64,000 nt of DNA from Nitrosopumilus sp. (lineage in GTDB: Archaea > Thermoproteota > Nitrososphaeria > Nitrososphaerales > Nitrosopumilaceae), in assembly GCA_963667665.2 (NCBI GenBank), contig OY763927.2, positions 1,152,001-1,216,000 on the forward strand, in the 5' to 3' direction. How positions within the stretch are numbered: position 1 is the first letter of the stretch; every line of letters begins with the position of its first letter. Of the stretch, positions 2,581-52,005 are shown piece by piece. The notes beneath the pieces were generated by a model. That model saw nothing but the letters and a program-made list of their open reading frames with translations. It was not told where the DNA came from and did not search any database. A program made the position numbers and the translations under genes.

Positions 2581-3063
2581 CTATTTACCTTCATTATCAA
2601 TAGTTGATTTCATTTTTGAAATATCATTTTTAACAGTAAGATGTTCTCCGTTGATTCTATCATCAGATGGAAATGTTTCCTTATCAGCTGGAACTTGAAC
2701 TCCAGCATCAATAACTCCTTTGAGAGCTGCTGCCATTCTTTGCGTGTATCTTTTAGTTCCGGTATAAAGAATAGCATCATTTGCACCTTTACCAAGTGCT
2801 TTCTTACCTGCCAAGTATCCTGTAAGATATGCTGCAGGTACACTCTTTCTAGAACCTTTCCAACCTTTTTCAAGTAAATATCTGGAATGTGCAGATGCAA
2901 TAACAGTATCACCAGTCATCCCAGGCTTGAGAATTTGTACTTGAGTGTTTTCATTAGAAATATTTACAGTAATAAAATCACGTTTACCCATCAACATAGT
3001 TCCTCGTTTTTTATAATTGGTCTTTTCTTCTCTAAGTCTTCTCAATATTTTTGAATAGGCCAT
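2581..3063 (-). CDS. rpl18: 50S ribosomal protein uL18
   Basis: RRLREEKTNYKKR and PAAYLTGYLAG motifs. Confidence 0.95.
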   Translation of the reverse strand: MAYSKILRRLREEKTNYKKRGTMLMGKRDFITVNISNENTQVQILKPGMTGDTVIASAHSRYLLEKGWKGSRKSVPAAYLTGYLAGKKALGKGANDAILYTGTKRYTQRMAAALKGVIDAGVQVPADKETFPSDDRINGEHLTVKNDISKMKSTIDNEGK

Positions 3064-3099
3064 CTATAGAAACCGAGTTTGAATCTTCTCTTATATACG

Positions 3100-4014
3100 T
3101 TAAGCGTGAATGAGAGCAACAAGTAATGCCTTTTGAGTATGAAGACGATTTTCTGCCTCATCCCAAACAACGGATTGATAACTATCAATTACAGATGATG
3201 TTACTTCTTGTCCTCTCTTAGCAGGAAGACAATGCATAAAGATCGCATTTTTCTTTGCAGTTTTCATTAATTTTGAATTGACTTGATACTTGGGGGAAAA
3301 ATTTTTGATTCTTTTTGGATTACTATTATGAATAGATGAAAAAGTATCTGTAACAACTACATCAGCATTTTTAGTTGCAATGAATGGATCTGTAGTTAAT
3401 TCAATGTTAGTTAATTTCTTTGATTCTTTAAGAACAGTTTTGTCAGGTTCAAATCCTTTAGGAGTTGCAATCGACATGTCAATTCCAGATAATGCAGCAC
3501 CATAAATCATAGAATTACAAACGTTATTTCCATCCCCAACCCAAGCAATCTTTAATCCTTTGAGTTTTTTCTTCTTTTCTTTAATTGTCATAAAATCTGC
3601 CAAAGTTTGACAAGGATGAAAAGAATCAGATAATCCATTTATCACAGGTACGTTTGCATGTTCAGCTAGTTTATCTAACAATTCATGTTCGTAAACACGG
3701 GCCATTATACAATCAGTGTATCGTGAGAGAGTTTTTGCCGTATCTTCAATAGATTCACCACGAGATAATTGCATATCATTTGATGACAAATTAATTGCAT
3801 AACCACCTAATTGATACATTCCAATTTCAAAACTTACACGTGTTCTAGTAGATGGTTTTTGAAAGATCATCGTTAATGTTTTATTTTTCAAAAGAGGTTT
3901 GTTTCCACCTTTTTTAAGTTCTTTTTTTAGCTTTATTGAATAATCGATTAATTCCACAAATTCCTTTGGTGTTAATTCCGCTAAAGTGAGTAAATCTTTT
4001 GTTTTGAGTTTCAT
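3100..4014 (-). CDS. argF: Ornithine carbamoyltransferase (start taken at ATG 4014, MKLKTKD)
   Basis: STRTR, HPCQ, GDGNNV and HCLP motifs. Confidence 0.96.
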   Translation of the reverse strand: MKLKTKDLLTLAELTPKEFVELIDYSIKLKKELKKGGNKPLLKNKTLTMIFQKPSTRTRVSFEIGMYQLGGYAINLSSNDMQLSRGESIEDTAKTLSRYTDCIMARVYEHELLDKLAEHANVPVINGLSDSFHPCQTLADFMTIKEKKKKLKGLKIAWVGDGNNVCNSMIYGAALSGIDMSIATPKGFEPDKTVLKESKKLTNIELTTDPFIATKNADVVVTDTFSSIHNSNPKRIKNFSPKYQVNSKLMKTAKKNAIFMHCLPAKRGQEVTSSVIDSYQSVVWDEAENRLHTQKALLVALIHA

Positions 4015-4066: not shown

Positions 4067-5308
4067 TCATTCACCAGATTCGAGTCTACCATGTTTAACC
4101 CACTCACGAATCTTGTTTGCTAGTTTGTTAGCTTCGTTGTCATTTTCAGGGGGAGGAACATCAAATAGATCTGAATAAGTTGCAATGTCATCATCGCTAA
4201 TTCCTTCAAACGGATCAGTAGAGGAAGATTCTGGTGTTGGTTCTGGTGTTGGTTCTGGTGTTGGTTCTGGTGTTGGTTCTGGTGTTGGTTCTGGTGTTGG
4301 TTCTGGTGTTGGTTCTGGTGTTGGTTCTGGTGTTGGTTCTGGTGTTGGTTCTGGTGTTGGTTCTGGTGTTGGTTCTTCTGTTTTTGTTATGTCAACATTA
4401 CCTAATGAACCAAAAACAGTTTCTAGAAAAGTTTCCTTATCAAATGGTTTTAGATCAGAATATTCTTGTCCGGTTCCAACATAAAGAACTGGTGTAGAGG
4501 TGACTTTTACAATGGATAAAGCAGCACCGCCTTTTGCATCTGCATCACTCTTTGTCAAAATAGAAGCATTGAATTTTACGCGTTTAAAAAATTCTCGTGC
4601 TTGATTAACAGTATCATTTCCAGCTAAAGAATCGCCTACAAAAATTGTCATATCAGGATTTACAACTTTGTTGATTTTTTCAATTTGTTCCATCAGGTTT
4701 TTGCTTGTTTGCATTCTTCCTGCAGTGTCAATTAACACACAATCTGTTTTGTGAGATTTTGCATACAATACTGCATCTCTAGCAACGGCTGCAGGATCTG
4801 AATTATAATTTTGTGCAACAAGTTTTAGATTTAGACGATTAGTATGTTCTCGTAGTTGCTCAATTGCACCAGCTCGATAAGTATCTGCAGCTGCAACAAC
4901 AACAGAATATTTTGCTTGTTGTAGCATATACGCAATTTTAGCTAAAGAAGTAGTTTTTCCTGTTCCATTAATTCCAACAAATAAAATCAGAAAGGGTTGT
5001 TCTTGTTTCTTTTTTTCATTAATTTTTTCAAATAGATCAATTTTCTCTACAGCATCAAATAATGCAGAGATGCTTGAAATCAAACTATCTTTAACAAATT
5101 TTTCAATTTGATGCTTGTCAATTTTTGAACCAATTAATTTTTCTTTTAGATCAGATTTAATTTCATCAATTACTTCACCAGCTACATCAGATTCTAAAAG
5201 AGAGATTTCTAATTCAAAAAGGATTTCTTCAATATCTTTTTCTTTGAGTTCCTTTTCACCAAAGCTTTTCGCTGCATTAGAAAATGCATCACGAAGTTTA
5301 TCAAACAT
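4067..5308 (-). CDS. ftsY: SRP receptor FtsY with a C-terminal (PTPE)n linker
   Basis: GINGTGKTT, DTYRAGA, DTAGR and TKSDADAKGG SRP-GTPase motifs. Confidence 0.97.
   Translation of the reverse strand: MFDKLRDAFSNAAKSFGEKELKEKDIEEILFELEISLLESDVAGEVIDEIKSDLKEKLIGSKIDKHQIEKFVKDSLISSISALFDAVEKIDLFEKINEKKKQEQPFLILFVGINGTGKTTSLAKIAYMLQQAKYSVVVAAADTYRAGAIEQLREHTNRLNLKLVAQNYNSDPAAVARDAVLYAKSHKTDCVLIDTAGRMQTSKNLMEQIEKINKVVNPDMTIFVGDSLAGNDTVNQAREFFKRVKFNASILTKSDADAKGGAALSIVKVTSTPVLYVGTGQEYSDLKPFDKETFLETVFGSLGNVDITKTEEPTPEPTPEPTPEPTPEPTPEPTPEPTPEPTPEPTPEPTPEPTPEPTPESSSTDPFEGISDDDIATYSDLFDVPPPENDNEANKLANKIREWVKHGRLESGE
4229..4372. repeat. Perfect 12-bp tandem repeat (TTCTGGTGTTGG) x12 encoding (PTPE)12 in FtsY
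   Basis: Counted directly: 144 bp, 12 identical units. Confidence 0.97.
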
Positions 5309-6518: not shown

Positions 6519-8543
6519 GTGAAATTATTAGTTTTTTCTTTGATGGTAGTATTTTTGGTGGGTTTTATTTTATTTCAATCTATAGAATCTGAAAATGAAA
6601 TTCAGACATACTTGGAGAGAAGTGTTCCATATGTTGGAACAGAAATTCCAAGAATGGATGGAATTGATGGAACTGGAATTAAAATAGCAGTAATTGATAC
6701 TGGAGTTGATTTTAATCATCCAGATTTATTTGGATGGGGTCCTGATGGAAAAGTGATAGGAGGATATAATTTCATACAAGAAGATCAACCACCTTTAGAT
6801 ACAAACGGTCATGGTACGCAAGTTGCTGGAGTAATTGCAGCCGATGGTCAAGCAGTTGGAATTGCACCTAAAGCAAAAATTCTTGCCTACAAAGTTTCAG
6901 AAGATGGTGAAGGAGTATCATCAGAATTAATCACTAGAGCCATAGAAAAAGCAATTGAAGATGGTGCAGATATTATCAATATTAGTTTAGGAGTAAACAA
7001 AACAAATACAAAAATTGAACGTGCAGTAAATAATGCATTAGAAAAAGGAATTTTCGTAGTTACTGCTGCTGGAAATGATGGCCCAGGATTCAAAACAATT
7101 GGTAGCCCAGGTAGAAATTTTGGATCTGTCACGGTTGGTGCAACATACAACAATCTCACTTCAAGTTTGGTTGCAACATTAGAAGTAGATGACAAACCAT
7201 ATACTGTAATTCCAATGGTAGGTTCATCAAAACTAGAAGAACCAATTATTGGAAAAATAATTTTTGGAGGATATGGGAAAATTGAAAACTTGAGAAAAAT
7301 TGATGTGAAAGATGCAATATTAATTGTTGAGAGAGGAAGTGATGTGGAAGGAGAGTTATTGTATTTTTCCATCAAGGAAAATAATGCTGCAAATGCAGGA
7401 GCAAAAGCTTTGATTGTATACAATAACAAAGCAGGAATTTTTTTGGGTGAATTGATTCACGAATTTATGGAACTAGGATACAAACCACAAATTCCAGTTG
7501 TATCCATTGACAGAGAAGAAGGACTTGAAATTATAGAATCTATAAAAAATGGTAATGAAGCAAATATGCATTTATTTTACAACCCAGATTTTGTAGCACA
7601 TTTTAGTTCTAGAGGACCAGTATCACCATTTTACATAAAACCAGACATGGTAGCACCTGGTGCATATATCAATTCTACACAAAACAATGGAGGATATAAT
7701 TTTACGAGTGGGACAAGTTATGCAGCACCACATGTTTCTGGAGCAGCAGCACTATTACTTCAAAAAAACCCAGAACTTCATCATCATGAAATTAAATCCC
7801 TATTACTAACTACAGTTGAGCCTGTTTCAGATGCCTATGGACAAGAATTTTCACTGCATGAATCAGGTGCTGGGAGATTAGATATTGGGAATGCATATGG
7901 TGCAAAATTAATCATCACTCCACCAAATTTTGTAGTTAATGTATCATCAGATGTTCTAATTGCGGAGAAACAATTTAGAATAAAATTGATTGAGGGTACG
8001 TTTGATAATTTTGATGTTAAATTTGTTGGGCCAGAATTTGTAAAATTCACATATTTTTTTGAAGGTAATACTTTACAAATTAAAATGAATGTCACTGAAG
8101 AAAATTTTGGAGAATATGAAGGAAAAATAATCATCAATCATGACAGTACTCGATATGTAATTCCATTTCTATTACATTATACACCAGGTTCAATTTCAAT
8201 AAATCAACAAAATCAAAAACTTTTCTTTTATATTTATCATCCAGAAGAATGGAGCTTTGCAAAAATATCAGTTACAAACAGCAAAGATGGAAAAATAGAC
8301 ACCACTACTGTTACACCAAACAAAAAGTCATCAATAGAAATCTATGAAAATGCAGAATACTGGATTGATGCAAAAATTAAAGTTAATGGAAACACATCAT
8401 CTGCATTTAACACAATTAAAATTAGTTCACTTCCAGAAAATTCTTACAGATTAGAAATAATCGACATTCCAGAAAAGCAGGTAGGAATAATTGCAGGAAT
8501 TGTAATAATAATAGGAATTATTGGATTAATTAAAAGAAGATAA
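6519..8543 (+). CDS. Secreted, membrane-anchored S8 (subtilisin-like) serine peptidase with a PA domain
   Basis: VIDTG, HGTQVAG and GTSYAAPHV triad motifs; PA insert; signal peptide and C-terminal TM helix. Confidence 0.92.
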   Translation: MKLLVFSLMVVFLVGFILFQSIESENEIQTYLERSVPYVGTEIPRMDGIDGTGIKIAVIDTGVDFNHPDLFGWGPDGKVIGGYNFIQEDQPPLDTNGHGTQVAGVIAADGQAVGIAPKAKILAYKVSEDGEGVSSELITRAIEKAIEDGADIINISLGVNKTNTKIERAVNNALEKGIFVVTAAGNDGPGFKTIGSPGRNFGSVTVGATYNNLTSSLVATLEVDDKPYTVIPMVGSSKLEEPIIGKIIFGGYGKIENLRKIDVKDAILIVERGSDVEGELLYFSIKENNAANAGAKALIVYNNKAGIFLGELIHEFMELGYKPQIPVVSIDREEGLEIIESIKNGNEANMHLFYNPDFVAHFSSRGPVSPFYIKPDMVAPGAYINSTQNNGGYNFTSGTSYAAPHVSGAAALLLQKNPELHHHEIKSLLLTTVEPVSDAYGQEFSLHESGAGRLDIGNAYGAKLIITPPNFVVNVSSDVLIAEKQFRIKLIEGTFDNFDVKFVGPEFVKFTYFFEGNTLQIKMNVTEENFGEYEGKIIINHDSTRYVIPFLLHYTPGSISINQQNQKLFFYIYHPEEWSFAKISVTNSKDGKIDTTTVTPNKKSSIEIYENAEYWIDAKIKVNGNTSSAFNTIKISSLPENSYRLEIIDIPEKQVGIIAGIVIIIGIIGLIKRR

Positions 8544-8544
8544 T

Positions 8545-10149
8545 CTATAAAGTAAGTTTTGGACCTGCATCAATTATATCAGATGAAACATTTTCAAATT
8601 TCTTAAAATTTTCAACAAATATTTGAGCTAAATTTTTTGCAGAAAAATCATACGAATCTTTGTCAATCCAAGTATTTTTTGGATCTAAAATTTCAGAAGG
8701 AACATCATCTATTTCAGTTGGGACATCTAAATTGAATAAATCATTATGATCATATTTCACATTATCAAGTGCACCTGAAAGAGCAGCAGTAATCATTGCA
8801 CGACTATATTTGATCTTTATTCTTTTTCCAATTCCATATGGACCGCCAGACCAACCAGTGTTTACAAGATAAACTACAGTATTGTGTTGATTAATTTTGT
8901 CTCCAAGTAATTTTGCATAAACAGATGCTGGTCTAGGCATGAATGGAGCTCCAAAACACTCAGAAAATACAGATTTTGGTTCTTTGATTCCTCTTTCAGT
9001 TCCGGCTAATTTACTGGTATAACCGGACATAAAGTGATACATGGCACCTTCTTTTGTTAATCTAGAAACTGGAGGCAAAACTCCTAATGCATCAGCAGTC
9101 AAAAATACAATCACCTTTGGATGACCACCAACACTAGGAATTACTGCACCAGGAATGTAATCCAAAGGATATGCAACGCGGGTATTTTCAGTTAAACTGT
9201 TATCATCAAAATCAGGAACATTATCATCAAGTACTACATTTTCTAAAACAGCACCTGGTTTGATTGCATTCCAGATTTCAGGTTCTGCTTCTTGACTAAG
9301 ATTGATACATTTTGCATAGCATCCGCCTTCAAAGTTGAACGTACCATTGTCAGACCATCCATGCTCATCATCACCAATTAGTTGTCTATTTGGATCTGCA
9401 GAAAGGGTGGTTTTACCAGTACCAGATAATCCAAAAAATAATGTAGTATCACCTTTTTTCCCAATATTTGCAGAACAATGCATTGGAAAAATACCACGTT
9501 CGGGTAAAAGGTAATTCATTATACTAAACATTGATTTTTTCATTTCTCCAGCATATTGCGTACCTCCAATCAAAACAATTTTTCTTGTTAAATCAACTAG
9601 GATTAATACATTAGTTCGGGTTCCATCAATTTCTGGAACTGCCTCAAAATCATTAATACATAATATAGTAAATTCAGGTTCATGATTTTCCAACTCCTCA
9701 TTTGTAGGTCGAATAAACAAGGTTCGTCCAAATAGATTTTGCCAAACGTGATCATTAATCACTCTAATGGGTAGACGATTTTCAGGGTCAGAACCTACAA
9801 AACCATCAAAAACAAAAAGTTCTTTATCATCAACAAAGTTTTTCATTTTTTCAAGAAGTTTCTCAAATTTATCACTTGGAAATTGATGATTAATTTTTCC
9901 CCAATCAATTGTATTTTGAGTTTTGTCATCATATACAATAAATCGGTCATCAGGAGATCGACCAGTATATTTTCCAGTATTAACTGAAAGAGAACCTGTA
10001 GAATTTACTACACCTTCATTTCTTTCAACTGCAAGATTTACCATTTCATCTACGCCTAGATTTCTGTAAACTTTGGAAGGACTGATCCCAAATGTTGTTA
10101 ATTGTGATGAGAATTTGTCAGTTACAGCATTACCTACAACTTGAGTCAG
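8545..10149 (-). CDS. pckA: Phosphoenolpyruvate carboxykinase (ATP); probable CTG start at 10149
   Basis: TGRSPDD, GLSGTGKTT, LIGDDEHGW and NFEGGCYAK motifs; frame stays open 35 codons upstream of ATG 10044 and includes VYRNL. Confidence 0.95.
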   Translation of the reverse strand: MTQVVGNAVTDKFSSQLTTFGISPSKVYRNLGVDEMVNLAVERNEGVVNSTGSLSVNTGKYTGRSPDDRFIVYDDKTQNTIDWGKINHQFPSDKFEKLLEKMKNFVDDKELFVFDGFVGSDPENRLPIRVINDHVWQNLFGRTLFIRPTNEELENHEPEFTILCINDFEAVPEIDGTRTNVLILVDLTRKIVLIGGTQYAGEMKKSMFSIMNYLLPERGIFPMHCSANIGKKGDTTLFFGLSGTGKTTLSADPNRQLIGDDEHGWSDNGTFNFEGGCYAKCINLSQEAEPEIWNAIKPGAVLENVVLDDNVPDFDDNSLTENTRVAYPLDYIPGAVIPSVGGHPKVIVFLTADALGVLPPVSRLTKEGAMYHFMSGYTSKLAGTERGIKEPKSVFSECFGAPFMPRPASVYAKLLGDKINQHNTVVYLVNTGWSGGPYGIGKRIKIKYSRAMITAALSGALDNVKYDHNDLFNLDVPTEIDDVPSEILDPKNTWIDKDSYDFSAKNLAQIFVENFKKFENVSSDIIDAGPKLTL

Positions 10150-10298
10150 AGGATTATGCCTCCAAAAATTATTTTATCAATCTCAGATGGTTTCATGAGA
10201 TATTTCGATCCGCCTTGAATTTCCTTATTATCTCTTTCCTATCTGAAATTTTTTCTTATCTAGGAACGTATTTATTTCAAAATTCAAGACTCACTCTT

Positions 10299-10703
10299 AT
10301 GTCGATCAACAAAGAAAAGCTTGCAAAGAGACAGGAAATAAAAGGACATAATCCTGATTTTGTTAGACCAGAAAGTTGGCGTTATGTTAGATTACAAACT
10401 AATTGGAGAAAACCAAAAGGTATTGATCACCACCAAAGAAAACAAAAAAGTAGAGGTCGTCCAGGTCTTGTTAAAGTTGGATATGGAGGACCTAAAGAAG
10501 CAAGAGGATTACATCCTTCAGGATTTACAGATAATTTAGTTTACAATTTAAATGATTTAGAAAAATTAGATCCAAAAAAAGATGGTGTTAGATTTGGACA
10601 TAGTGTTGGTACTAAAAAGAGAAAAGAAATTGTTGCTAAAGCAGTTGAAGGAAAATTTAAAATTTTTAATGCGAGAGTGAATGTAAGTGGTAGTAAATCT
10701 TAA
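10299..10703 (+). CDS. rpl32e: 50S ribosomal protein eL32
   Basis: WRKPKGID and RGLHPSG motifs; true start taken at ATG 10299. Confidence 0.95.
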   Translation: MSINKEKLAKRQEIKGHNPDFVRPESWRYVRLQTNWRKPKGIDHHQRKQKSRGRPGLVKVGYGGPKEARGLHPSGFTDNLVYNLNDLEKLDPKKDGVRFGHSVGTKKRKEIVAKAVEGKFKIFNARVNVSGSKS

Positions 10704-45334: not shown

Positions 45335-45510
45335 CTATAAGACCTCCATTAGAACATTAAATGTAATAGTAAAGAATACACACAAACTGTAAAAAATTCC
45401 GTTCAGGTTAATATATATCTAATCTGAAATTCGTCGCAACAAGTGTTTTTTCTTATTTGTCAATAAATTTTTTCACAACCTTAAATAGTGTAAATTTAGG
45501 CGTAGAATTG

Positions 45511-46347
45511 ATGAAAGCTTATCTATCGGTGTTTGCCCTATCTGCAATTTTAATTGCAAGTATTGGTATGGCACCAGCATTTGGACAAAGCTCACTTGTA
45601 GTAACTACAGACAAAGCATCCTATTCAGAAGGTGATACTGTAGAAATTACAGGAGAAGTTGCTCAACTTCTAGGAGGATATGCCTTATCTGTCAGAGTGA
45701 TAGCACCAAATGGAAATATTGTTTCCATTGAACAGCTCACAGTTGGTGCAGATAAAAAATTCAGTTTTAGTACAACTGCAGGCGGCCCACTATGGAAGAG
45801 TGGAGGAACTTATACAGTTCTAGTCCAATATGGAGACAACAAAAATAATTCAGGAACAACATCATTTGAATTTGGTGGTTCTACAACGACACCACCAACT
45901 GAAGTAGAAGGATCAGTGTTAACTGATACAACTGTTTCAGTTTCAGGTTCTAGTGATTTGATAGGATATGAGATTACAGGTGGAAAACTACTAGGCATCG
46001 TAACTGATTTTGATGCAAATTCACTGATCATATCTATTCAAGCTGATGAGGATGGCACATTAATCCTTACAATACCTAGATCGGTGTTAGATGCAACAAT
46101 TAATGGTGAAGATGATGACTTCTTTATCTTAATTGATGGAGAAGAAGTAGACTTTGATGAAACAACCACATCAACAGACAGAACACTTACCATAGCATTT
46201 CCAGCAGGTGCTGAAGAGATCGAGATAATCGGTACCTTTGTGATTCCAGAATTTGGTACAATTGCAGTCATGATTCTAGCAGTAGCAATTATCTCAATAA
46301 TTGCAGTATCTGCAAAGTCAAGACTTAGTATTATGCCAAGATACTAA
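45511..46347 (+). CDS. PEFG-CTERM sorting-domain surface protein 1
   Basis: Signal peptide, Ig-like domain, VIPEFG + TM helix + basic tail; start taken at ATG 45511. Confidence 0.9.
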   Translation: MKAYLSVFALSAILIASIGMAPAFGQSSLVVTTDKASYSEGDTVEITGEVAQLLGGYALSVRVIAPNGNIVSIEQLTVGADKKFSFSTTAGGPLWKSGGTYTVLVQYGDNKNNSGTTSFEFGGSTTTPPTEVEGSVLTDTTVSVSGSSDLIGYEITGGKLLGIVTDFDANSLIISIQADEDGTLILTIPRSVLDATINGEDDDFFILIDGEEVDFDETTTSTDRTLTIAFPAGAEEIEIIGTFVIPEFGTIAVMILAVAIISIIAVSAKSRLSIMPRY

Positions 46348-46351
46348 AATT

Positions 46352-46370
46352 CATCTTTTTTTCTCTTTTT
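46352..46370 (+). terminator. T-rich archaeal terminator after PEFG gene 1 (same sequence after gene 2, ~51090-51108)
   Basis: CATCTTTTTTTCTCTTTTT shortly after the stop codon. Confidence 0.6.
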
Positions 46371-46372
46371 AA

Positions 46373-46428
46373 GATTCTGGGTAATCTGAGGGGTTTGTTT
46401 TGAATAATTCTCCGTGTTTACTTTCGGG
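46373..46428 (+). repeat. Left terminal inverted repeat
   Basis: GATTC-TGGGTAATCTGAGGGGTTTGTTTTGAATAATTCTCCGTGTTTACTTTCGGG. Confidence 0.9.
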
Positions 46429-46493
46429 TGTTTGTTAAGTATAGAATCTAAGTCTTGAAAAGATAAATTGAATATATCATATTCTCATAATAC

Positions 46494-46712
46494 ATGAGAT
46501 CGATTTATACTATAATTCAATATGTCTGTGTAGATGATTTCATCGATTATTCTTTTTGGGGGCTTGTCGTAGGACTTGTCACTCTTGCTGGCGGAACTGG
46601 TTTAGCATTATATTTGTATTTTAGAACAAAGAAAGATATTGATGCTATTGGCTTACATGATGATGTTATTGTAAGTAGACTAAGTTCGGCAGGCATAGAG
46701 ATTACGGATTGA
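46494..46712 (+). CDS. Small single-TM hypothetical protein (transposon cargo)
   Basis: FWGLVVGLVTLAGGTGLALYLYF TM segment followed by RTKK; start uncertain, may be a remnant. Confidence 0.5.
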   Translation: MRSIYTIIQYVCVDDFIDYSFWGLVVGLVTLAGGTGLALYLYFRTKKDIDAIGLHDDVIVSRLSSAGIEITD

Positions 46713-46753
46713 ACAAATAAATTCATAAATATAGGAATTTTTGAATATTATGT

Positions 46754-46897
46754 ATGTCTGAAACCACAATTAAGAAATCGACATTATCTAATCCAGATAA
46801 TGAAATAGAAGTTACAACAACTTTTCAAACAAAAACAACAATTGTTAATAATAATACTGAATATGACAAGGTAGATGACGACAAAGAAGAATATTGA
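46754..46897 (+). CDS. Possible 47-aa acidic, Thr-rich microprotein (cargo)
   Basis: Manual translation MSETTIKKSTLSNPDNEIEVTTTFQTKTTIVNNNTEYDKVDDDKEEY; TATA-like ATAAATA ~25 bp upstream; overlaps the next ORF. Confidence 0.35.
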   Translation: MSETTIKKSTLSNPDNEIEVTTTFQTKTTIVNNNTEYDKVDDDKEEY

Positions 46898-47312
46898 TTT
46901 TGAAGTTATAAAAGAAAGGTGGGGTAAATACACCTTAAATGATGGCTCAGTTTTAAAAATTAGATTTATTTTAACAAACATAAAAACATGGAATGAAAAC
47001 GGAGAGAAAAAATACACTGCAAATAATCAAGTCATTCAAACAATTCTTTCTGCTGAACATCTAATTGGAGAACCAGCAAAGGCTACATTTACACCCGAAG
47101 TATTACAAAAAAATATAGAAAAAGATGATTTATCATATGAGCAGTTAGAAACCCCAGTTAATGAATACATTTTAGATGATGGAACAAAACTCAAACTTTT
47201 CCCTCAAGTAATAAGAGTCGATAGATCTTCATTAAAAAATAAACTTGGTGAACCTATCTATATGGTAACTACCAATGTAACAATTAATTATAATTTACCT
47301 AAAACATCATAG
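46875..47312 (+). CDS. Hypothetical protein with an internally duplicated beta-rich domain (cargo)
   Basis: Two copies: IDFEVIKERWGKYTLNDGSVLKI and LSYEQLETPVNEYILDDGTKLKL. Confidence 0.8.
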   Translation: MTTKKNIDFEVIKERWGKYTLNDGSVLKIRFILTNIKTWNENGEKKYTANNQVIQTILSAEHLIGEPAKATFTPEVLQKNIEKDDLSYEQLETPVNEYILDDGTKLKLFPQVIRVDRSSLKNKLGEPIYMVTTNVTINYNLPKTS

Positions 47313-47336
47313 ATGAATCCTATGATCTATGTGATT

Positions 47337-48449
47337 TTATTTTTTACTGGAATTTTGAATTAAGGTTATCCATTTGTTTTTTCCATTAATTTTAATTCCT
47401 GCCCTATCTGCTGGAGTATCATTATTCAATCCCATGTGGGAACGGATGTAATTATGATGAATCTGCATACCTGTAATAATTGGAGAGTCATCTTTTTTCA
47501 ATCCTCTCATGACCTTTTCCCTGTCTCTAAGTTCTCCGTTAAGTCTCTCCATTTTGTTGTTGTTCATATCTCCCTTAAAGTGAACATGACGAATGTGGAT
47601 TGATTGATCTATTTTGTATCTTGAATACCATTCCTTTTTGTGGGCTTGCTGAAAGTTTCTAGCACCGTCTGAAATGAGTACTTTGGGTTTCTTTCCTGCA
47701 ACTTTTACACTTTCCTTAAACATTGGTCTTACATCCTCAGTGTACTTTGTATTTGAAACCTGTTTTGCAATCCAGAATCTAGTTTCATCATCCATCATTA
47801 CATAGAGATATTTTCTATCCCCTTTAATTTTGAGATATAGTTCGTCAGTTCTCCACTTGTCTGAAACTTGTGGTGTAATTTTTTCAAGATATTTCTCCAT
47901 AAGATTTGTATATTTTCTAATCCAATTCCATACTGTTTTGTGAGTTACTTTGACTCCTTGCAACTCTAAGAATCTCTGAGTATTCCTTAATGACTCTCCT
48001 GTAAAGTATAGTTGTAATGCAGATGTTATCATTTGAGGACTTGCTTTCATTTTCTCAAAGCCCAGATTGATTGAGAATTTCTTCTCACAGTTCTTGCATT
48101 TGAATCTCTGAATATCATAGTTTTTGTTGTGTCTAACTCCATCTTTTTTGAGATTAACAGATTCACAATTAGGGCAGGATTGATTATTAATTTCATTTAT
48201 GGTAACTTGTTGTTTTACTATCTCTCTAATTTCAAGTGAAACCTCTACTGCATGGATGTGTTTGCAACAAATTTGTCTGAATGTGTGATCAGGACAGGAA
48301 CATTCCCATCCTTGTTCAGTTGAGATAACGTCATAGTATTTGTTTTGTGATTGTGATTTTACTAGGTAGTAATGACTATCAATTCTCTTGATCTGGTCTT
48401 GTTTTTCTGCAATCTTTTTTCCTCTTTGTTGTCTTGGGTTTGGTTTCAT
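47337..48449 (-). CDS. DDE transposase (IS6/IS240-like core) with N-terminal SWIM finger and Zn ribbon
   Basis: SWIM CSCPD...CKH; CPNC...CKNC; HTH; WRTDE, LISDG and NNNKMER catalytic motifs; HNYIRSH..L..TPA; start taken at ATG 48449. Confidence 0.92.
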   Translation of the reverse strand: MKPNPRQQRGKKIAEKQDQIKRIDSHYYLVKSQSQNKYYDVISTEQGWECSCPDHTFRQICCKHIHAVEVSLEIREIVKQQVTINEINNQSCPNCESVNLKKDGVRHNKNYDIQRFKCKNCEKKFSINLGFEKMKASPQMITSALQLYFTGESLRNTQRFLELQGVKVTHKTVWNWIRKYTNLMEKYLEKITPQVSDKWRTDELYLKIKGDRKYLYVMMDDETRFWIAKQVSNTKYTEDVRPMFKESVKVAGKKPKVLISDGARNFQQAHKKEWYSRYKIDQSIHIRHVHFKGDMNNNKMERLNGELRDREKVMRGLKKDDSPIITGMQIHHNYIRSHMGLNNDTPADRAGIKINGKNKWITLIQNSSKK

Positions 48450-48459
48450 GTTGTTATAG

Positions 48460-48473
48460 TTATGGTACCATAA
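48460..48473. promoter_or_regulatory. Perfect 14-bp palindrome TTATGGTACCATAA in the divergent transposase/AbrB promoter
   Basis: Seen directly; abuts TATA-like TTTAAAA at 48474-48480. Confidence 0.55.
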
Positions 48474-48483
48474 TTTAAAATAC

Positions 48484-48912
48484 ATGAACTATCCTAAACA
48501 AATTATGAAACTACAAAAAGTTCATGCGTACAACTATGGGGATAAAGCCCACCACAAGTATGTGATAACCTTGCCTGAGGAATTGATTGGTGAATTAAAG
48601 TGGGAACATGGTAGTGAATTAGAAGTTAAAAAACTTAAAGATAAAATTCAAATTTCATTTGTTTCAAAACCCGTCAAAAATCCGAAACCTAAGAACATAA
48701 AACCAAAGATGCCATATAGTGAATTTAGAGAAAAAATCCAAAATGCTTTGGAGTATAGAGATGATGGGGCTACATGGACTGAATTACGAGATCAATTAGA
48801 ATTAGAGCAAGTCGTACCTAATAACAAATGGGTTAGACAATTAGAGAAAGACATCGGACTAAAACGAATTAGAGACATGAAAGGAGTTGTGTGGCGAATT
48901 AGTCATGTCTAA
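48484..48912 (+). CDS. AbrB/MazE-like DNA-binding protein with a C-terminal helical (wHTH-like) domain (cargo)
   Basis: KYVITLPEELIGELKWEHGSELEV swapped-hairpin motif; GATWTELRDQLEL C-terminal domain; start may be ATG 48505. Confidence 0.78.
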   Translation: MNYPKQIMKLQKVHAYNYGDKAHHKYVITLPEELIGELKWEHGSELEVKKLKDKIQISFVSKPVKNPKPKNIKPKMPYSEFREKIQNALEYRDDGATWTELRDQLELEQVVPNNKWVRQLEKDIGLKRIRDMKGVVWRISHV

Positions 48913-49683
48913 GGGATTAAAGGCGTTTGATGATGTTAAAGTAGAAACAACAGTTGAGAAAAAATATTTTGAAGATCTTATTGTTTTAGGTAATGCTGTA
49001 CCTGATGAAATTAGTGACAATAGAAAAACTGTTTGCACAGTAGCGTTTTCAAAAGAACATGGACTGATTAGAATTTATCCAGTACCGCCATACTCTCCAA
49101 TGAAAAGGTGGAATGTAGTTTCTTTGCCCTTAGAAAGAAATACAAAAGATAGTAGAGATGAAAGTTGGAAAATTCAAGGCTCAAAAACAGAATGGGAGAC
49201 ATTATCAGATAAAATAATAGTAAAGCGAAAATTATCAAGAAAAGAGTGGGTAGAACTAATTACATATTTGAAAGAAAATCATAGTTATGGTTGTATCGAA
49301 GATATTAATGATAAAAAATTGAGTTTAGGAATAATTGTCCCAAAAATTATTGATAAGAATTTAGAAAAAATGTGGATTCTACTGTTCAAACCACATTAGT
49401 GAATGATGACTTATTCATGACAATTCAAAATTATGGAGTTCGTCCAGTTATTACATATAGTTGTCCCCATTGTAGAACTAAAAAACAACAACACAAACAG
49501 GGCGTGTTGGAATGGGGAGTGTATGAGTGGTTACGTTATAATCCTGTTGAAAAAGTTCAAGATCAAGTTTGGGATAATCTACACATTGATGAATCAGGGT
49601 ATGACCAAACGTTTCTTGTTGGCAATATGAATCTCCATAGGAGTAGATTTTTGATTATTAGTATTTTCAGGTACAAACTTTGA
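48905..49683 (+). pseudogene. One ~259-aa gene split by a -1 frameshift at A6 (49365-49370); putative OB-fold-like, DUF488-associated protein
   Basis: Adding one A joins ORFs 48905-49399 and 49372-49683 (…LEK-N-VDSTVQ…). The halves carry complementary motifs: TVCTVA/LIRIYPVP/DSRDESW and CPHC...H/EWG/FLVGN/FLIISIF. Confidence 0.72.
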
Positions 49684-50040
49684 TTGTAACAATCTAGGAT
49701 CTTCAACCAACTCTCTAACCATGTGTCTGTGACAAGGGCAGCCATCTTTTTCATAACAAAGTAATGTAATGTCTTGCATGTTGCTTCTAGCTTGTAATGC
49801 ATGAATTGCTTCAACACTATCCATATTGTCTCTTAACTCAGACAATAGGGTTATTTTAAAATCATCCCAATCTACTTCAGTATTTTTGTATCGTTTTAGT
49901 AATTCTGCACTTGAGGCTAACTCTCGTACCCAAATATCATATTTTTCTCGTTTAACTCCCCTAGGATACCATCTAGTAATCAAAACTCGAAGTCCATCTT
50001 CTTCTTCGATTGGTTTGTAAATGGACTTTGTCTTAATCAC
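49594..50040 (-). CDS. DUF488 (YeaO-like) family protein (cargo)
   Basis: KSIY...DGLRVLITRWYPRGV, W.RELASS.EL and ITLLCYE...CHR motifs. Confidence 0.88.
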   Translation of the reverse strand: MIKTKSIYKPIEEEDGLRVLITRWYPRGVKREKYDIWVRELASSAELLKRYKNTEVDWDDFKITLLSELRDNMDSVEAIHALQARSNMQDITLLCYEKDGCPCHRHMVRELVEDPRLLQSKFVPENTNNQKSTPMEIHIANKKRLVIP

Positions 50041-50143
50041 GGCTGTTCGCCTTTATCCTTGCACAAAATATAATTCATGATCCGATGTTGAAAAGCAAGG
50101 ATCAAAGGAGAGAGATCGAGAAAAGTTGACTTTTTACTTAGCC

Positions 50144-50199
50144 CCCGATAGTAAACAAGTAGAAGATTTGAAAATAAACCCTTCAGATTACCCACTTCC
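50144..50199 (-). repeat. Right terminal inverted repeat
   Basis: Reverse complement reads GGAAG-TGGGTAATCTGAAGGGTTTATTTTCAAATCTTCTACTTGTTTACTATCGGG. Confidence 0.9.
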
Positions 50200-50200
50200 C

Positions 50201-50220
50201 TTTTTAAATATACATAAATA
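50201..50220 (+). promoter_or_regulatory. Probable BRE/TATA promoter TTTTTAAATATACATAAATA (identical copy at ~51104-51123)
   Basis: Same 20-mer ends ~25 bp before the ATG of PEFG genes 2 and 3, consistent with leaderless transcripts. Confidence 0.65.
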
Positions 50221-50245
50221 CCAAAGATATCTGGATTGAAACAGG

Positions 50246-51085
50246 ATGAATTTTAAACGTTCTACAACATCAATGGCAATAGCCCTTATGGCACTGTCAT
50301 TAATTTCAGTGGTATCAATTCAACAAGATGCTTTTGCTGCAAGTCAAGGAATGTCTATTACAGCAACAGCTGATAGAGGTTCAGATACCATTACTCTAAT
50401 GGGTATGACAACTTCAGGATATACAGATGTTACAATTAGAGTAGTATCACCAATGGGAAATGTAGTATCTGTAGGTCAGGAAACACCAGATGAAAATGGA
50501 AATTTTGAAGATGTATTCAATGTTAGTAAATGGAATGAAGATGGATACTATACAATTCAAGCCAAGCAAGGTCAAGGAATTTTCACATTATCTGTAGATG
50601 TTCTAGTTAACAATGGTATGACTGAAAAAACTTCTGAAACTCAATCTACTTTAGATACAGGAATTTTTGTTCCAAACGTCATTACTAGAGACGCAGGAAT
50701 TGAAATTTTTGCAGAAGCTGAAATTGGTTCTACAACAATCAATATTATTGGAACTACAGACAGAGTAAGTGAAGCTATTACATTAACTGTAATTTCACCA
50801 AATGGGAATATAGTATCAATTGATCAAGTAACAGCAATGCTTAATGGAGAATTCACTTCAGTTATTGCTACAGGAGGACCATTATGGAAACAAGATGGTT
50901 TTTACACTGTAACTGCATACCAAAATGACAATCCAAAATATTCTGCGTCAACTGAGGTAGATATCAAAGATGGAGTAGTAGTACCAGAATTTGGTACAAT
51001 TGCAGCTATGATTCTAGCAGTAGCAATTATCTCAATAATTGCAGTATCTGCAAAGTCAAGACTTAGCATCATACCAAGATACTAA
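50246..51085 (+). CDS. PEFG-CTERM surface protein 2
   Basis: Signal peptide, two Ig-like repeats, VVPEFG + TM helix. Confidence 0.9.
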   Translation: MNFKRSTTSMAIALMALSLISVVSIQQDAFAASQGMSITATADRGSDTITLMGMTTSGYTDVTIRVVSPMGNVVSVGQETPDENGNFEDVFNVSKWNEDGYYTIQAKQGQGIFTLSVDVLVNNGMTEKTSETQSTLDTGIFVPNVITRDAGIEIFAEAEIGSTTINIIGTTDRVSEAITLTVISPNGNIVSIDQVTAMLNGEFTSVIATGGPLWKQDGFYTVTAYQNDNPKYSASTEVDIKDGVVVPEFGTIAAMILAVAIISIIAVSAKSRLSIIPRY

Positions 51086-51147
51086 AATTCATCTTTTTTT
51101 CTCTTTTTAAATATACATAAATAGAGATAGGTGTAAATCGCAACAAG

Positions 51148-52005
51148 ATGAACAACCGTACGTCGTTCGCGCTACTAGCCGTTTTGACTGTAGTCGCTAC
51201 TTTAACCATGTCATCAGCATATGCTCAACAACCAGCAGTATATTCTGAGGAGGAAGCAAGAATAGCAGCAAATGAGTTTTTGCTTCAGGATCTTCCAGTA
51301 TCTGTTTGGACAGACAAAACAGATTATGTTCACAATGACATGATTATTGTAACAGGTCAAGTAGCAAATGTATCTGGATTTCCAATCACAGTTACTGTTG
51401 TGAGTCCACTAAACTCCCTTGTTACAATTGCTCAACTCACTGTAGCAAATGATGGTAGTTTTGAGACAACACTAAACACAGCAGGTGCAATGTGGAAATA
51501 CGATGGTACCTACACCATTAAAGTAAACTATGGAAGCCCTGAAAAAAGTAACAAAGCAAAAGTTGAACTAACTGGTGAAGTTGCATATACACCAACAGTG
51601 CCAGCAAAACAATGTGGTACTAATGATATATCTGTAGATGGTCAATGTATACCATACAGCATTTCAGGTGGAATGGTAACTAGTGCAACCTTCAATACTG
51701 ATGATAATTCAATTATCATTAACATCAACGCAGAAGATGATGGAACACTAACAATAAACCCAGAAACACAAGTCATAGATGGTATCTTTATGGTACTAGT
51801 TGACGGAGAAGAATGGGATGATGTTGAAATTGTTGCAAATAAAGTAACAGTAATGTTCCCAGCAGGCGCTGAACAAATTGAAATTATTGGTACCTTTGTG
51901 ATTCCAGAATTTGGTACAATTGCAGCCATGATTCTAGCAGTAGCAATTATCTCAATAATTGCAGTATCTGCAAAGTCAAGACTTAGCATCATACCAAGAT
52001 ACTAA
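51148..52005 (+). CDS. PEFG-CTERM surface protein 3
   Basis: Signal peptide, Ig-like domain, Cys pair, VIPEFG + TM helix. Confidence 0.9.
   Translation: MNNRTSFALLAVLTVVATLTMSSAYAQQPAVYSEEEARIAANEFLLQDLPVSVWTDKTDYVHNDMIIVTGQVANVSGFPITVTVVSPLNSLVTIAQLTVANDGSFETTLNTAGAMWKYDGTYTIKVNYGSPEKSNKAKVELTGEVAYTPTVPAKQCGTNDISVDGQCIPYSISGGMVTSATFNTDDNSIIININAEDDGTLTINPETQVIDGIFMVLVDGEEWDDVEIVANKVTVMFPAGAEQIEIIGTFVIPEFGTIAAMILAVAIISIIAVSAKSRLSIIPRY

Follow-up and report, generated by a model that had tools for sequence, protein, structure and literature searches.

A probable IS6-family transporter element between PEFG-CTERM genes of Nitrosopumilus and the recurrent use of its 8-bp target

IS6 is the textbook family of small, single-gene insertion sequences (IS), which mobilise cargo solely as composites of two copies and are hardly selective about their targets. 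What, then, is a unit of almost 4 kb in which a single IS6-like transposase gene and several passenger genes share one pair of long terminal inverted repeats (TIRs), and why does it sit directly in front of a gene for a PEFG-CTERM surface protein? Such a unit lies in the stretch of Nitrosopumilus DNA analysed here (the window: 64,000 nucleotides, G000:C1:1152001-1216000, from the 1.89-Mb genome G000). We consider it probable that 46373-50199 is an IS6-family transporter IS (tIS), a unit transposon with one transposase, that its lineage reuses one 8-bp target, and that the window copy is an old resident, perhaps a hybrid.

The element spans 3,827 bp between inverted repeats and an 8-bp target-site duplication (TSD). 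Its ends are the imperfect inverted repeats, 42/51 identical, that an earlier note on this DNA had described: the arms, 46378-46428 and 50144-50194, are 82% complementary. A repeat search found this 51-nt pair to be the longest inverted repeat within 45500-51500, and 40 block-shuffles of the interval yielded best 51-nt inverted matches of 28-34, versus 42 in the real sequence. Extended to the outer tips, the left TIR (~58 bp; 46373-46430, + strand) begins GATTCTGGGTAATC and the reverse complement of the right TIR (~58 bp by repeat search; 50142-50199, - strand) begins GGAAGTGGGTAATC. CTTTTTAA abuts the element on both sides, at 46365-46372 and 50200-50207, and the duplication is exactly 8 bp, as claimed, because the next outward base differs on both sides. 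When 46373-50207 was deleted, the reconstructed empty site yielded the expected 34-nt string identical to 51090-51123. The flank left of the element (46246-46372, 127 nt), which comprises the 3' end of the upstream PEFG-CTERM gene and an intergenic tail, matched 50984-51110 at 96%.

The single TIR pair encloses one IS6-like transposase gene, with passengers to its left and right; the left arm is 0.91 kb and the right arm 1.66 kb away from it, and both the layout and these distances agree with the earlier note. This gene (47337-48485, - strand), the sole transposase gene in the element, is intact and encodes 382 amino acids (aa) comprising a SWIM finger, a zinc ribbon, an HTH (helix-turn-helix) as well as a DDE domain, although translation probably starts at Met13 (48449), near where homologues begin. 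Pfam DDE_Tnp_IS240 (PF13610) scored 55.5 bits (cut-off 27), and the best NCBIfam match was the IS6 profile (NF033587), of which positions 1-200 of 202 were covered. Across nine aligned transposases, D214, D273, E313 and R320 were invariant; following the IS26 motif pattern, we take these columns to be the catalytic triad and the accompanying basic residue. Also invariant were C62, C64, C74 and H76 of a CxC...CxH set (a weak SWIM match) and the four-Cys ribbon C104, C107, C130 and C133. More than 5,200 proteins scored as transposase homologues at E ≤ 1e-10, and NCBI labels some homologues in Nitrosopumilus and Nitrosotenuis 'IS6 family transposase'.

The unit has many relatives. When 401 genomes of the taxonomic family were searched at the DNA level, 207 gave matches, a tally that takes in eight unpublished genomes (specific claims rest on others); among the matches listed, transposase genes were 65-79% identical. 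From the flanks of the best transposase and TIR hits, which are not a random sample, we delimited 13 elements: besides that of the window (3,827 bp), these are in G224 (3,965 bp), G195 (2,444 bp), G219 (3,168 bp), G152 (2,557 bp), G322 (2,456 bp), G325 (2,932 bp), G134 (4,408 bp), G190 (3,260 bp), G136 (4,509 bp) and G013 (2,825 bp, two copies), together with p3 (3,041 bp) and p4 (2,573 bp) of G000 itself. They thus range from 2,444 to 4,509 bp versus a transposase gene of ~1.1 kb, and none is a simple ~1.3-kb IS. Most have 50-60-bp TIRs, IS6-like tips, 8-bp duplications and differing cargo. TIR similarity extends over ~50-60 bp in G224, G322, G013, G134, G190 and G136 (pair identity 52-58/58) and over 51 nt in the window; pairs in G000, G152, G195, G325, G219, p3 and p4 are identical at 33-47 positions over 58-65 aligned columns, and TIRs of the distant clade (G219, p3) measure ~25 bp. 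Family tips are GGTTCTGT or GGCTCTGT, with GGTTCTGTG in G013, GGCTCTGTC in G322 and GGTTCTGTTGCA in p3. Duplications of 8 bp, such as AAATTAAC, GCAAAAAG, GTCAAAAA and NTTTTTAA, also border the elements of G224, G152, G190, G219, G322, G325, G134, G195, G136 and p4 and G013 copy a. No inverted repeats were detected around the transposase genes of five further loci (L133, L134, L135, L139 and L141), and matches in L136 and L140 were not accepted as element ends.

Mobility of such units is best illustrated by the two G013 copies, which are 100% identical tip to tip over 2,826 bp, three non-transposase open reading frames (ORFs) included, and have unrelated flanks; copy a has the exact duplication AAATTAAC. 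Their identity, cargo included, directly attests that cargo-bearing units of this kind transpose as one piece by means of one transposase. The hallmark of a transporter IS, cargo moved inside one inverted-repeat pair, is therefore seen in G013, whereas the window copy shows the anatomy only. Judged by its sequence, the window element is best classed as an IS6-family tIS of a thaumarchaeal subgroup. The proposal that it represents a distinct thaumarchaeal family stands in so far as related elements occur in many archaeal genomes, 13 of them now delimited, but the group does not stand apart from IS6, given the full IS6 profile, the IS6-type tips and the NCBI naming.

How far do these elements depart from known systems? 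In the accessible text of a review of the family (PMC7986276), IS6 members measure 0.7-0.9 kb, a few 1.2-1.76 kb, and are resolvase-free, with one ORF, 14-20-bp inverted repeats, GG tips, a cTGTt motif and 8-bp repeats. With IS6 members such as IS26, IS257/IS431 and IS6100 the elements share an IS240/IS6-type DDE transposase with D, D, E and a basic residue 7 after the E, 8-bp target duplications, the GG..CTGT tips of family members and the lack of a resolvase gene; neither the ORF list nor a Pfam scan of the window element contained a resolvase or integrase gene. They differ in length (2.4-4.5 kb versus 0.7-0.9 kb), in TIRs (~50-60 bp in the main clade versus 14-20 bp), in having several genes (at least five ORFs besides the transposase in the window) where a single transposase gene fills the IS6 element, in a transposase gene that is internal and divergent from a small regulator gene instead of driven from the left end, and in reuse of one 20-nt motif as target. 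The sole IS6 member that the same source, as far as accessible, names with a passenger gene is ISDsp3 of Dehalococcoides (Varani et al. 2021, PMC7986276). Like that tIS, the present elements combine a single transposase with passengers within one terminal-repeat pair; unlike it, they have cargo in 13 of 13 delimited cases, and this cargo is multi-gene, lies on both sides of the transposase gene and varies between elements. The clostridial clade h transposases, described there as 340-350 aa long with an N-terminal zinc-finger extension (PMC7986276), resemble ours (370-382 aa) in length and in a zinc-binding extension before the HTH and DDE core. This likeness is one of description, and the present enzymes differ in their archaeal hosts and in an extension made of a SWIM-type CxC...CxH finger plus a four-Cys ribbon.

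Two other systems bring an IS6-type enzyme or a unit structure together with cargo. In IS26 pseudo-compound transposons and translocatable units an IS6-type enzyme also moves cargo, and insertion next to an existing copy resembles the tandem arrays described below; however, IS26 cargo lies outside the IS, between two direct-repeat copies, whereas here it lies inside one inverted-end pair and new insertions make their own duplication. With one transposase gene and inverted ends, the window element lacks the pseudo-compound structure. Tn3-family unit transposons likewise have long terminal repeats, replicative logic and passengers within their ends, but their transposase (~1,000 aa) is from a different family, they have a resolvase and its res site, and their duplications are 5 bp long; the Pfam scan found no Tn3-type domains in the window element, and its duplication is 8 bp, not 5. 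We found no thaumarchaeal member in the accessible portion of the IS6 review tree (PMC7986276), no description of cargo-bearing IS6 in that of Krupovic et al. 2019, who counted IS families in Thaumarchaeota (PMC6563490), and no mention of passengers in that of a 2026 archaeal IS survey (PMC13343696). A literature search on site-specific or promoter targeting by IS6 elements in archaea returned nothing relevant among the papers listed.

The strongest result, and one that goes beyond the earlier note, is the return of this subgroup to one conserved promoter-proximal motif. The TIGR04296 PEFG-CTERM sorting domain was found in both genes flanking the element and in the next gene downstream (46-49 bits, cut-off 25): upstream lies PEFG_L, a PEFG-CTERM surface protein gene (45457-46347, + strand; 49.3 bits), and downstream PEFG_R (50246-51085, + strand; ORF and TIGR04296). 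The 8-bp target NTTTTTAA lies at the 5' edge of a conserved 20-nt motif, TTTTTAAATATACATAAATA (50201-50220, + strand), 26 nt upstream of the PEFG_R start codon; from the archaeal promoter consensus, we take this motif to be a TATA-like promoter element of the PEFG gene. G000 contains only two copies of the motif and ~1,370 NTTTTTAA 8-mers. Allowing up to one mismatch, the motif occurred in 237 of the 401 family genomes (five of them unpublished) and 18 of 27 genera, versus 0 for a reversed-pattern control, and two copies often lie ~920 bp apart. In G283 (C2:45636-47622) the spacing is 1,967 bp, which suggests a ~1-kb insertion at the second junction.

We refer to the junction occupied in the window as site A and to its paralogous, unoccupied counterpart at 51099-51123 (+ strand) as site B. 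A probe covering 50200-50700 matched 114 of the 151 genomes of the genus, and 30 returned loci, that of G000 included, were examined. The empty site predicted in related genomes, a junction between TTTTTTCT and NTTTTTAA ATATACATAAATA, was present at 17 of them. An IS6-type TIR end abutted the same base at six (G000, G219, G373, G224, G405 and G447), six carried other sequence and one was not assessable. Through other search routes, site A was also found occupied in G195, G331, G152 and G190, and site B in G322, G325 and G134, of which G322 and G325 are empty at site A. In total, at least 12 genomes from two genera (G134 and G190 belong to the other genus) have IS6-type TIR ends at the same 8-bp target. 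Where both ends are present, the duplicated 8-mer is CTTTTTAA in G224, G152 and G190, as in the window, ATTTTTAA in G195 and G325, and TTTTTTAA in G219, G322 and G134; G373 has a 53-bp solo end between two ATTTTTAA copies. Some sites were struck more than once: G190 carries both a 630-bp remnant and the 3,260-bp element, arranged in tandem and separated by three 8-mer copies, an older end remnant of ~35 bp lies beside the G224 element, and in both cases the newer element is on the promoter side.

Does this pattern reflect independent insertions or shared descent? One ancient insertion, inherited vertically and followed by decay and cargo turnover, would need no repeated targeting, and the decayed site-A copies in G195, G331, G405, G447 and G373 do look old, while between species the PEFG genes on either side share only 60-85% identity. 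Yet the hosts are about equally distant, with RpoB 96-97% identical to that of G000 in five occupied genomes, whereas the transposases in those genomes are 40-83% identical to the G000 transposase. On a midpoint-rooted tree of 13 transposases (with a long-branch warning for the G000 paralogue p1), site-A/B elements fell into two deep clades, whose TIR sequences are unrelated, with G013, which is sited elsewhere, nested among them. Vertical inheritance is further opposed by site B, a separate junction, being occupied while site A is empty (G322 and G325), by the loci closest to G000 in PEFG_R (G411, G239, G353 and G377) being empty, and by the existence of tandem insertions. Given the disparity between RpoB and transposase identities and the two deep clades, common descent does not explain the pattern, and we consider it very improbable; repeated targeting or a hot-spot borne by the target does explain it. 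Comparison of these sequences therefore shows that elements of the lineage landed repeatedly on the one 8-bp target NTTTTTAA before PEFG-CTERM genes.

What, in turn, is the history of the window copy? Its TIRs, identical at 44/58 positions, are among the most diverged pairs, and its outer tips are unlike, as had been observed: GATTC on the left versus GGAAG at the right end (reverse complement). Where the family has its tip motif (GG start, cTGTt), the left end shows GATTCTGGG and the right end GGAAGTGGG, neither of which is canonical. Because the TIRs have diverged, the tips are of different types and a cargo gene is frameshifted, we regard the copy as probably an old resident or a hybrid and not recently active. 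The two tips are variants that are each found at both ends elsewhere, GATTCTG in G134 and G190 and GGAATTG in G224 and G152, so that the window copy may be a hybrid or simply old. In the former case, two elements would have inserted successively in the same 8-bp target and been fused by internal deletion or recombination, such that the 3.8-kb unit never transposed as such; the exact 'duplication' would then be automatic, because every insertion there duplicates the same 8-mer. This relic scenario draws on the tandem occupancy in G190, the end remnant beside the G224 element, the symmetry of each tip type in other elements and the left TIR, which shares 93% identity with a solo TIR at another place in G000 (C1:598226-598281) and only 82% with its own partner. 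However, the gene order (cargo, transposase, divergent regulator, cargo) agrees with that of intact relatives, unequal left and right ends are common within a single IS, and no internal junction or second transposase fragment was found within the element, and we regard a fused origin as unlikely.

A further property ascribed to the ends, a recurring motif that would provide several transposase-binding sites, was not significant in the TIRs of the window element: 88/300 and 159/300 mononucleotide shuffles did as well as the best internal 14-mers. By the same 14-mer shuffle test, internal direct repeats in TIRs of G136, G013b, G224 (right) and p4 (left) are suggestive only.

By analogy with IS6, transposition of such an element would begin with the transposase binding both long ends; these would be nicked, and their 3' ends joined to target DNA in which the two strands are cut 8 bp apart. 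A cointegrate would then arise as the element is replicated, and host homologous recombination would resolve it into a TIR-to-TIR unit with an 8-bp duplication; intramolecular events, as the IS6 literature leads us to expect, could leave copies without a duplication and the rearranged solo end at 598 kb. Regulation may be encoded opposite the transposase gene, where a predicted DNA-binding protein of 142 aa (48484-48912, + strand) is AbrB/MazE-like, its MazE_antitoxin score of 21.5 bits being under the Pfam cut-off of 24.7. An imperfect palindrome between the two divergent starts (48445-48488; 24-nt arms, 79%) is a candidate operator, and a 31-nt palindrome occupies the equivalent place in the G224 element. 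AbrB-like ORFs of 55-60 aa are divergent from the transposase gene in 5 of the 13 elements, and a small ORF at the regulator place in G224 is ribbon-helix-helix (RHH)-like by eye and has no family match. Judging from this layout, the divergent AbrB-like or RHH-like protein probably represses the transposase through the palindrome.

Several observations weigh against this account. The transposase scores 118.2 bits with the NCBIfam IS6 profile, just below the curated cut-off of 125, and the cointegrate route is drawn from the IS26/IS6 literature. Because its two tips differ in type, the unit as now composed may never have moved. G000 has one full copy of the element and one solo TIR, and several TIRs in the family are solo remnants; for those in G384, G402, G322 and two places in G353, no mates were found within ±9 kb. 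Both G013 copy b and p3, at other genomic sites, lack a duplication. Nor is the target preference absolute, since the elements of G013 and G136, p3 and p4, like five solo ends, are inserted in other sequences, and the occupancy fractions are rough because the survey began from window-similar loci and some occupied loci were found via TIRs. Finally, short inserts of ~70-200 bp occupy the same 8-mer in G384, G038 and G213, three of the six loci with other sequence.

These short inserts (L110, L111 and L118, respectively) lie upstream of the PEFG_R orthologue, two of them with an intact 8-mer on one side and a degenerate one on the other. They contain no recognisable IS6-type TIR and could be MITE-like (miniature inverted-repeat transposable element) or decayed elements. 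Because unrelated inserts share the 8-mer, the hot-spot could be a property of the target and not of the transposase: promoter DNA or a bound host protein might attract many insertions, or insertions might survive only there as harmless. In line with such a target-borne hot-spot, the 8-mer is duplicated or nearly so around the inserts in G384 and G038 (that in G213 is longer), two transposase clades that are very distant from each other and have unrelated TIRs both insert there, and a third, p3-like TIR type abuts CTTTTTAA at loose ends in one sponge-metagenome run. On the other hand, of the NTTTTTAA 8-mers of G000 only the two that lie within the motif serve as targets in the cases observed, single-nucleotide precision is beyond what survival bias can account for, and the short inserts may themselves be decayed members of the same family. 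We treat a hot-spot of the target as a possible but lesser explanation. That a whole archaeal IS6-type lineage homes to one conserved promoter element has, in our view, about even chances. Because the newer copies are on the promoter side, whatever directs the homing would reside in the motif itself or in a host transcription factor that binds there; its reader could be the transposase, through the SWIM/zinc-ribbon extension, or the AbrB-like protein.

The passenger genes of the window element fall on either side of the transposase gene. To its left are a 72-aa ORF with a hydrophobic segment (46494-46712, + strand) and a small 47-aa ORF of uncertain coding status (46754-46897, + strand), both without a family match, and a 145-aa ORF, o145 (46875-47312, + strand), without a Pfam or NCBIfam match, relatives of which recur in the elements of G322 (35% aa identity) and G190. 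To its right, the AbrB-like gene is the first of a three-gene module. The second gene is frameshifted (48905-49683, + strand; ORFs 48905-49399 and 49372-49683), its intact form encoding 259 aa in G044, and a 7-nt AGAAAAA difference after 49362 distinguishes it from a second copy in G000. The third, a convergent DUF488-N3a gene (49594-50040, - strand; 148 aa; PF22751, 98.5 bits, cut-off 27), overlaps the frameshifted gene. The module is conserved at 63-71% aa identity in G044, G384 and G353; IS6-type transposase genes adjoin it in G384 and G353, and in G044 it has no such neighbour. More widely, the trio (window 48484-50040; loci L058, L059 and L092) recurs as a conserved module at 63-85% aa identity in IS-rich contexts of several genomes. 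Atlas puts the 259-aa protein near dual-OB (DuOB)-like, largely viral clusters, which is a lead only; the trio may be a conflict or DNA-modification module, and a search for literature linking DUF488 with DuOB found none. Most cargo ORFs had no match in Pfam or NCBIfam, the only family-matched cargo outside the window element being a NurA-domain protein of G219. A sigma-70 promoter/terminator scan was discarded, as it gave 21 sites versus 19.9 expected and its model is unsuited to an archaeon.

Elsewhere in G000, TIR-like sequence was confined to three places: the two ends of the element and the solo copy at 598 kb. The outer tip of this solo TIR adjoins a 98% identical copy of element positions 2677-3480, comprising the 3' half of the DUF488 gene and the unframeshifted neighbour gene, in a region full of transposase fragments. 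The right-hand cargo is therefore present twice in G000, and its second copy was itself struck by an element with this end type. The surrounding segment (C1:590001-603000, L026), outside the window, is dense in mobile-element debris, with a split IS-type transposase at 2719-3580, an IS6-type transposase fragment at 4899-5051, the solo TIR at 8222-8281, the truncated DUF488/259-aa module and a region of short tandem peptide repeats at 9886-10474 (positions within the segment).

G000 also has three further full-length paralogous transposase genes, 40-45% identical to that of the window. One belongs to p3 (C1:474894-477934), which has 24-nt perfect ends beginning GGTTCTGTTGCATC, no duplication and, by eye, a split methyltransferase-like gene as cargo. 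No inverted repeats were detected around the p1 transposase gene, and only one end was detected for p2. p4 (C1:403718-406290), with 42-nt ends and the duplication GTCAAAAA, retains only a C-terminal transposase part, 48% identical over residues 191-380. Its 491-aa ORF joins an N-terminal part that by eye is N6-adenine DNA methylase-like to the C-terminal half of an IS6-type transposase, and is probably a truncation fusion. Near-matches to the motif with identical flanks occur at position 1748 of the 6,911-bp contig C2 and at C1:936125, and C2 may thus duplicate part of the chromosome.

Public reads add to this picture. At least half of the sampled words occurred in each of 12 runs from several studies, two of the runs labelled sponge metagenome. 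Contigs from run X2 bridge both element junctions, which is weak independent support, as the best-matching runs may include the source sample. In run X9, contigs continue from CTTTTTAA into ATATACATAAAT, the empty-junction type, and cannot be assigned to site A because the left flank is 96% identical to site B. At loose ends in the same run (one contig each), a p3-type end (...GCAACAGAACC) directly adjoins CTTTTTAA, and CTTTTTAA in turn leads into the opposite end of this type, a hint of a third TIR type at the target in a natural population, whether at junction A, at B or in another organism. An extra AT within an AT-repeat at window position 50065, just inside the right end, appeared in contigs of three runs and reflects a strain polymorphism or a second genomic copy. 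The AGAAAAA 'insertion' in runs X2 and X13 was rejected as a polymorphism of the locus, because a loose end traces it to the second copy at C1:598 kb. Both PEFG genes, and the element in part, are represented among RNA-library contigs; such contigs show neither transcription nor ranking. In another thaumarchaeon, two PEFG-CTERM genes were co-expressed with amoABC, according to the accessible part of a preprint (10.1101/175141).

A lineage with several genes inside long ends, a divergent small regulator and a return to one promoter motif would widen the known repertoire of IS6 and would offer a natural system in which to study target selection by DDE transposases in archaea. If true, promoter homing would amount to a 'safe harbour' strategy, directed by sequence or by a factor, within a DDE family so far credited with little target choice, resembling that of the yeast Ty elements, which use the transcription machinery. 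For the hosts, ammonia-oxidising archaea with small genomes, the PEFG-CTERM cluster emerges as a place where foreign genes enter recurrently. The cargo seen, nuclease-, methylase- and DUF488/dual-OB-type genes, may be defence-related, and it bears on how these abundant archaea gain accessory functions.

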